Shown here one piece after another: positions 28,323-28,338 of a DNA stretch of 64,000 nt (its first letter is position 1; each line of letters opens with the position of its first letter). Position numbers and translations under genes: made by a program. The notes under the pieces were generated by a model. That model searched no databases, was not told the DNA's origin, and worked only from the letters and a program-made list of their open reading frames with translations. The DNA comes from Candidatus Fermentibacteraceae bacterium (GTDB taxonomy: Bacteria > Fermentibacterota > Fermentibacteria > Fermentibacterales > JCC-6), in contig JAMOUX010000011.1 in NCBI GenBank assembly GCA_027067855.1, forward strand, positions 12,528 to 76,527, given 5' to 3'.

Positions 28323-28338
28323 TGCATAAAACATGCCT
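28323..28338 (-). promoter_or_regulatory. Putative sigma54 (-24/-12) promoter of pilin paralog 1: aGGCATG-tttt-ATGCA
   Basis: On the minus strand, GG and GC are spaced exactly as in the canonical TGGCACG-N4-TTGCW. It lies ~43 nt upstream of the ATG in an AT-rich gap. A near-identical element precedes pilin 2, and a GAFTGA-containing NtrC-family regulator is encoded nearby. Confidence 0.5.

Follow-up and report, generated by a model that had tools for sequence, protein, structure and literature searches.

Candidate sigma-54 promoters and a conserved upstream palindrome, a probable PilR enhancer, at two type IV pilin genes of Fermentibacterota

Which transcription machinery serves the two type IV pilin paralogs that lie beside the pilus gene cluster of Candidatus Fermentibacteraceae bacterium, a member of the phylum Fermentibacterota? 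The question is raised by a 64,000-nucleotide stretch of its DNA (GenBank assembly GCA_027067855.1, contig JAMOUX010000011.1, positions 12,528 to 76,527 of the forward strand; hereafter the window, numbered from its first letter), in which an original prediction, made from the letters and their open reading frames, pointed to matching sigma-54-type -24/-12 elements upstream of both genes. The window also lies within ENA contig ERZ27262658:k141_552240 (178,628 bp). We found no literature description of sigma-54 or of pilin regulation in the Fermentibacteria phylum. Judging from the sequence of the window and of its relatives, we consider it highly probable that both elements are working sigma-54 promoters, and that they are activated from an upstream palindrome by the response regulator PilR, which is encoded in the same cluster. 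Below we present the evidence for this proposal, weigh it against three other explanations, and describe the surroundings of the two genes, the coordinates of which are collected in Table 1.

On the minus strand, the pilin 1 sequence aGGCATGttttATGCA runs from 28338 to 28323 and leaves 42 nucleotides (nt) between the end of the element and the A of the pilin 1 ATG (28281), while a gap of 49 nt separates cTGGCATGaatcATGCT from the pilin 2 ATG (31753); these distances agree with the approximately 43 and 50 nt originally given. Likewise borne out is the claim of a canonical GG-N10-GC spacing, which we see in both elements as in the sigma-54 consensus YTGGCACGrN3TTGCW (quoted in PMC2725144). Of the 14 positions that the consensus specifies, 12 agree in the pilin 2 element and 10 in the pilin 1 element, and the pilin 2 element is the sole match to TGGCAYN6TGCW in the window that has no mismatch. 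Each element is on the same strand as its gene, in intergenic AT-rich DNA with a ribosome-binding site. The unusual AT-richness of these tracts, to which the original prediction had also drawn attention, is evident from a GC fraction of 0.32-0.38 around the pilin promoters versus 0.596 for the whole window. A GC content under 40% per 100 nt is reached in just three places of the window, namely upstream of each pilin and ahead of the first pilB-like gene. Transcription starts are predicted near 28312 for pilin 1 and near 31792 for pilin 2, giving 5' untranslated regions of about 31 and 39 nt, respectively.

To gauge these matches against chance we used a sigma-54 weight matrix of 17 columns, built from the consensus mrNrYTGGCACG-N4-TTGCWNNw (quoted in PMC2725144). 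A scan of both strands of the window, as the original prediction had suggested, placed both sites above background: with 16.75 bits for pilin 2 and 14.29 bits for pilin 1 they take ranks 1 and 2 of 127,968 positions. Among shuffled upstream regions the observed score was attained by 3 of 20,000 for pilin 2 and 27 of 20,000 for pilin 1. With the same matrix the textbook promoters glnAp2, pspA and nifH score 17.7, 14.4 and 13.7 bits, and both pilin sites fall in this working range. These promoters served as the calibration because the Geobacter loci retrieved by a PilR search, intended as a positive control, had no adjacent pilin detectable with the prepilin motif. The looser pattern of TGGCAYN6TGCW with at most one mismatch is not enriched across the window (13 found against 7.9 expected), and the significance of the two sites therefore rests on match quality, position and conservation rather than on count.

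We then examined conservation by locating every prepilin gene near pilR in Fermentibacteria loci and scanning the 200-300 nt upstream of each. The resulting comparative set of 36 pilin genes draws on the window, on 18 Fermentibacteria/Aegiribacteria genome loci and on eight metagenome contigs. A -24/-12 element precedes 35 of them, 13-58 nt from the start codon, which extends to the phylum the original argument that an element shared by both paralogs is functional. In the 18 genome loci it is found at all 24 pilin genes near pilR, with scores of 11.9-18 bits, predicted leaders of 27-58 nt and typical forms such as TTGGCAA-N5-TTGCT and TTGGCAA-N5-TTTGCA. Metagenome contigs with closer relatives supply nine further cases among ten additional pilin genes, the only gene that lacks the element being the second of a tandem pair. 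Three independent pilin 1-type orthologs have it in the forms CAGGCAC-AAAAT-ATGCA (L083/L084), CTGGTATGGTTCTTGCT (L085) and ATGGAAAGGATTATGCA (L086), and upon aligning them with the window sequence GG.A.......TGC.T emerges as the only invariant block in otherwise divergent DNA. An alignment of 20 promoters, anchored on the predicted start, reaches 2.0 bits at -25, -24, -22, -14, -13, -12 and -10, such that GG, A-22, TGC and T-10 are invariant, while spacer and flanks are variable (0.3-0.7 bits in the spacer and a mean of 0.28 bits over -150 to -31). Across the 723,342 positions of the relatives' loci there are 32 sites of at least 14 bits, and 21 of these are pilin promoters.

Alignment of the pilin upstream regions also brought out an invariant block farther upstream, the palindrome TTGCA-N3-TGCAA, which the original prediction had not noticed. 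In 426 kb of Fermentibacteria DNA it occurs exactly 16 times, against 0.35 occurrences expected from composition, and every one of the 16 copies lies upstream of a pilin gene. The copy at pilin 2, extended to ATTGCA-AAA-TGCAAT, is the only exact one in the window and begins 10 nt past the stop codon of gene X, which lies between pilR and pilin 2; its counterpart at pilin 1, CCGCA-TTT-TGCAA, has two mismatches and falls, in the alignment, on the GC..TGCAA block that does not vary among the relatives. Six Fermentibacteraceae-type loci have the centre of the palindrome at -95 or -96 and a seventh (L019) at -106; the Aegiribacteria-type loci have it at -119 to -121, apart from L013 at -127, and the metagenome contigs at -111 to -128. 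Exact copies keep to -95 or to about -120 (-119 to -127), the one at -106 being the sole exception. An inverted repeat of 13 bp at such a distance would be the expected target for the dimeric Fis-type helix-turn-helix (HTH) domain of an NtrC-family activator, and the palindrome is probably the PilR enhancer; ATTGCAAAATGCAAT and CCGCATTTTGCAAT are the candidate PilR-binding sequences in the window, with weaker affinity predicted at pilin 1. The main palindrome is accompanied by another short element that contains TGCA: about 26 nt downstream of it there is GTGCATAAT at pilin 2 (31856-31864) and GTGCGATTT at pilin 1 (28398-28406), both on the minus strand, and in L003-L007 AATGCATAAT is found about 21 nt upstream of it. 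This element may be a second activator site.

Two pilins are also found in loci of relatives. L083 has a layout identical to that of the window, namely pilS-pilR-X-pilin 2, two genes on the opposite strand, and pilin 1. In five Fermentibacteraceae-type loci tandem pilins directly follow pilR (at about 11.4-12.4 kb in L015, L018, L061 and L068, and about 10.4-11.4 kb in L017); the first pilin of the pair has palindrome and promoter, whereas the second has only the -24/-12 element, just past the terminator of the first, with the order being reversed in L015. Some tandem pilins of this type have non-ATG or unclear start codons.

The gene order on the pilin strand is pilB, pilB, pilT, pilC, pilS, pilR, X, pilin, and the same order is seen in relatives. 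The PilS/PilR-like pair that the original prediction had placed 1.5 kb away is found 1.4 kb upstream of the pilin 2 promoter, and the regulator has the expected GAFTGA motif at residue 230 of its 473-codon open reading frame (463 residues in the gene call). PilR is recovered by the Pfam models Sigma54_activat (3.4e-66), Response_reg (1.1e-28) and HTH_8 (4.1e-10), with AAA_lid also found; G(A/S)FTGA is present in all 25 PilR orthologs of the phylum, and every ortholog that is not truncated at a contig end retains the HTH. Its closest relatives (55-76% identity) are all in metagenome-assembled genomes, and those named to a taxon are Candidatus Fermentibacteria, Aegiribacteria or Hyd24-12, while NtrC-type regulators of other phyla are 39-46% identical. 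A crude hydropathy scan, which does not resolve the number of segments, places the hydrophobic segments of PilS between residues 12 and 183.

In light of these features we posit the following course of events. Sigma-54 (RpoN) RNA polymerase would bind the -24/-12 element of each pilin and form a closed complex, while the kinase PilS, which has a multi-pass membrane region, would phosphorylate PilR in response to a signal, perhaps the pilin pool of the membrane as in Pseudomonas (PMC6058289). Dimers or hexamers of PilR would then bind TTGCA-N3-TGCAA at pilin 2, centred about 95 nt ahead of the start, and its degenerate counterpart at pilin 1, centred about 118 nt ahead of the start. With the AT-rich DNA in between bent into a loop, the AAA+ domain would open the promoter by means of its GAFTGA loop and ATP hydrolysis. 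In view of the strong terminator that follows it, pilin 2 would be transcribed as a single-gene unit. Co-regulation of both pilins is plausible, but the two may not respond equally, given the degenerate palindrome of pilin 1 and the A that replaces T at -26 of its promoter element. We infer that sigma-54 is present in this genome, since the activator is conserved and intact and since sigma-54 and its activators co-occur in diderm bacteria with lipopolysaccharide (PMC3162934); the Hyd24-12/Fermentibacteria genomes encode a diderm lipopolysaccharide envelope and type IV pili, but no flagella (PMC5030696), and with such an envelope and pili sigma-54 would be expected.

Several observations weigh against this proposal. 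Both elements depart from the consensus at -21, where C is replaced by T, and at -15, where T is replaced by A; in pilin 1 A also replaces T at -26, and the pilin 1 palindrome is itself degenerate. The matrix was composed after the sites had been seen, with column frequencies that are approximate, and anchoring an alignment on the best matrix match inflates conservation at the matrix columns; this last bias, however, cannot explain the conservation in view of the score distribution in the same loci, where 21 of the 32 top sites are at pilins. No PilR-specific family model scored above its cut-off, the best NCBIfam matches being AtoC, NtrC and ZraR, all below theirs; the name PilR rests on synteny and domain make-up. 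A search of six-frame translations for the RpoN-box motif did not find rpoN in the 64-kb window or in loci L001-L080. There is no terminator between gene X and pilin 2, and read-through from the pilSR operon may contribute to pilin 2 transcription. Finally, sequences resembling housekeeping promoters overlap the element in relatives: the Aegiribacteria-type form reads TTGGCA-N17-TATAGT, a near-consensus -35/-10 pair at about -26 to +2 (L001-L007, L083, L087), and Fermentibacteraceae-type loci have an overlapping TTGACg-N17-cATAAa in another register, at -35 to -5 (L015-L019, L061, L068).

Among the alternatives, the one that fares best accepts the sigma-54 promoters but supposes another activator, encoded elsewhere, the palindrome being the site of that protein or of a repressor. 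The palindrome is indeed unlike the hallmarks reported for Pseudomonas PilR sites, TGT-N11-AGA and GTCT (PMC6058289), and Myxococcus has a further NtrC-like regulator, NmpR, that can indirectly take the place of PilR (PMC6211767). Nevertheless, pilR stands beside a pilin in every locus examined, the recognition region of its HTH_8 domain and the palindrome are conserved in parallel, the latter is confined to pilin genes within the 426 kb of relatives' DNA, and activator genes usually adjoin their targets (PMC2725144). This strict linkage of pilR, palindrome and pilin genes makes PilR the economical choice of activator, and we regard an activator from elsewhere as improbable.

A second alternative has the pilins transcribed by a housekeeping sigma factor, or by read-through from pilSR-X, with the -24/-12-like sequences being inactive or overlapping the true promoter. 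It draws on the failure to find rpoN in the window and loci L001-L080, the missing terminator after gene X and the overlapping hexamers of the relatives, where dual promoters are possible. These hexamers, however, differ in register between the clades and are absent from the window, while GG and TGC at their fixed spacing are invariant in all. In the window the upstream regions of the pilins offer sigma-70-like pairs matching no more than 8 of 12 positions, with -35 hexamers matching 3-4 of 6, and a search there for sigma-70 and Bacteroidetes-type (TAnnTTTG) promoters gave only weak matches or none. The region upstream of the first pilB-like gene provides the contrast: it has TTTACA-N16-TATACT, matching 10 of 12 positions, and no sigma-54 match, which argues that the pilus machinery operon uses a housekeeping sigma factor and the pilins sigma-54. 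Moreover, pilin 1 is divergent from a 305-residue gene starting at 28530 on the plus strand, across an intergenic region of 248 bp, and therefore is out of reach of read-through from the pil operon. Taken with these points, we hold transcription by the housekeeping factor or by read-through to be very improbable.

The remaining idea, that the GCAW-N5-WTGC core is an inverted-repeat operator of a dimeric transcription factor, can appeal to GCATGA-A-TCATGC in pilin 2 (arms of 6 bp), GCAT-N5-ATGC in pilin 1 and GCAA-N5-TTGC in relatives, and to the TTGC/GCAA words that the element shares with the upstream palindrome, but we reject it as scarcely credible. The conservation does not follow the symmetry, as G-25 and T-10 never vary and yet the bases facing them, at -11 and -26, are not their complements. 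The sigma-54 consensus by itself contains a GCA/TGC symmetry of 3 bp, and the fixed distance to the start codon together with a sigma-54 activator suits a promoter better.

Sigma-54 promoters activated by PilR would thus place this locus beside well-studied systems, and the precedents for pilA that the original prediction had cited, Pseudomonas (PMC6058289), Geobacter (PMC2725144) and Myxococcus (PMC6211767), are correct. In Geobacter sulfurreducens pilA is immediately downstream of pilR, its RpoN promoter has been mapped by 5'-RACE (rapid amplification of cDNA ends), PilR is its activator, and the RpoN consensus is TTGGCACGGTTTTTGCT (PMC2725144). The order pilB-pilT-pilC-pilS-pilR followed by a pilin is common to that species and the window. 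Yet Geobacter belongs to another phylum, Desulfobacterota, its genomes yield matches about 43% identical to the window PilR, none with a neighbouring pilin found, and the window differs in having a 446-residue membrane-protein gene between pilR and pilin, a pair of full-length pilin paralogs under separate promoters, and the candidate enhancer TTGCA-N3-TGCAA. Pseudomonas aeruginosa likewise pairs a multi-transmembrane kinase with an NtrC-type regulator, and its pilSR genes are not known to adjoin pilA. Myxococcus xanthus, of another phylum again and with a single pilA, has a pil cluster of the same order, and we know of no enhancer sequence that it shares with the window. In P. aeruginosa PilS senses the pilin pool and PilR acts with sigma-54 at the pilA promoter, where the reported PilR-site hallmarks differ from the palindrome described here (PMC6058289), and in M. 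xanthus PilR uses the sigma-54 site of the pilA promoter (PMC6211767).

Table 1. Positions of the candidate regulatory elements, genes and AT-rich tracts in the window
Feature	Position	Strand	Remarks
Pilin 1, prepilin of 118 residues	27925..28281	-	MKKG/FTLIELM; Pfam N_methyl E=7.5e-9; GGAGG ribosome-binding site 8 nt upstream
AT-rich tract, pilin 1 promoter and DNA between palindrome and promoter	28247..28440		minimum 30% GC per 100 nt
Pilin 1 sigma-54-type -24/-12 element, cAGGCATGttttATGCA	28323..28339	-	GG 28337-28336, GC 28325-28324
Degenerate palindrome, candidate PilR enhancer of pilin 1	28424..28436		centre about -118 from predicted start
Intrinsic terminator after pilin 2	31323..31350	-	12-bp GC-rich stem, then T run
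Pilin 2, prepilin of 126 residues	31373..31753	-	MKKG/FTLIELM; Pfam N_methyl E=8.9e-9; AAGGAG ribosome-binding site
AT-rich tract, pilin 2 promoter, palindrome and intervening DNA	31738..31930		minimum 34% GC per 100 nt
Pilin 2 sigma-54-type -24/-12 element, cTGGCATGaatcATGCT	31803..31819	-	GG 31817-31816, GC 31805-31804
Perfect extended palindrome, candidate PilR enhancer (upstream activating sequence) of pilin 2	31880..31894		centre about -95 from predicted start
Gene X, polytopic membrane protein of 446 residues	31904..33244	-	start overlaps pilR stop; sub-threshold TMEM260-like match only
pilR, sigma-54-dependent response regulator	33241..34632	-	REC, AAA+ (Walker A GESGSGKE, GAFTGA), HTH_8 (Fis-type)
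pilS, sensor histidine kinase	34625..36286	-	N-terminal multi-pass membrane region, PAS, HisKA, HATPase_c
Third AT-rich tract, upstream of pilB-like gene	42167-42401		ATG of the gene at 42202, minus strand

The two pilins, which are 52% identical, both carry a class III signal peptide, with N_methyl and TIGR02532 above cut-off. Orthologs of pilin 1 include P0122-P0124, with the same synteny in L083, while homologs of pilin 2 number in the thousands, the named ones being from Fermentibacteria/Aegiribacteria. The overlap of its start with the pilR stop makes gene X probably co-transcribed with pilSR; it is present in Aegiribacteria-type relatives and absent from Fermentibacteraceae-type loci. 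Between the pilins the opposite strand encodes the 305-residue protein and a polytopic membrane protein of 623 residues. Just before the ribosome-binding site a leader block, GTTAACCC / TTCAAACCC, is conserved across Aegiribacteria-type loci (31767-31775 in the window; about 20 nt before the pilin ATG in L003-L007). We reject the idea that the pilin leaders contain a riboswitch or another known RNA element, as they are unstructured and gave no Rfam match above threshold, the only sub-threshold matches being of hairpin type at the pilin 2 terminator.

At the far end of the cluster, two tandem genes for PilB-like ATPases (MshEN and T2SSE) precede pilT (40427-42202 and 38610-40415, minus strand). 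In three relatives the open reading frame preceding the first of them contains, at its 3' end, a strong -24/-12-like site of about 15 bits (TTGGCACTGTAGTTGCC in L006, 2093-2109, and L020, 1170-1186; TTGGCACAGTTACAGCA in L021, 2097-2113), and the window has a degenerate counterpart of 8 bits, TCGGCACGGTAACAGCC, at 42461-42477 on the minus strand; such sites may represent internal promoters or have arisen in coding sequence by coincidence.

Large polytopic membrane proteins flank the pilins, both in the window (31904-33244 and 24495-26264 on the minus strand, 29444-31318 on the plus strand) and in relatives (L018, 12383-14275; L083, 4893-6782; L087-L089), with only sub-threshold matches of glycosyltransferase type (TMEM260-like, E=0.0076; PMT_2, E=0.0013; a faint DUF8201). 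Just past the pilin 1 ortholog in L083 are genes for a GT2 protein, an acetyltransferase, a DegT aminotransferase and an MBOAT protein, which together with the flanking membrane proteins suggest a pilin glycosylation island. A few kilobases beyond pilin 1 lie dprA, encoding DNA-processing protein A (22382-23425, minus strand), which hints at a link of the pili with DNA uptake, and a gene for an HU/IHF-family DNA-binding protein (about 21193-21723, minus strand); a protein of the IHF type could introduce a bend into the AT-rich DNA that separates enhancer from promoter.

In every sequence-level property of a sigma-54 promoter that could be tested, the two pilin elements agree with what such a promoter would show. 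Control of the major pilin by sigma-54 and PilR is already well established in Proteobacteria and Myxococcota, and the understanding of how sigma-54 promoters work is unchanged. The module of promoter, palindrome, PilS/PilR and pil gene order, which is conserved throughout Fermentibacterota, would extend this scheme into the FCB (Fibrobacteres-Chlorobi-Bacteroidetes) superphylum, to which we take the phylum to belong. Going beyond this, we suggest, as a proposal about which we are slightly more doubtful than confident, that PilR of Fermentibacterota has an enhancer code of its own, TTGCA-N3-TGCAA near -95/-120, and that two pilin paralogs have recurrently been kept under separate sigma-54 promoters with enhancers of different quality. 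If so, cells with two such promoters would be able to change from one pilin type to the other, or to combine both, by way of a single PilS-PilR signal. Promoter and palindrome together form a testable motif that could predict the PilR regulon in these genomes and could help interpret metatranscriptomes of anaerobic digesters and sediments, and, if the proposal holds, they would be this uncultivated phylum's first defined cis-regulatory module.

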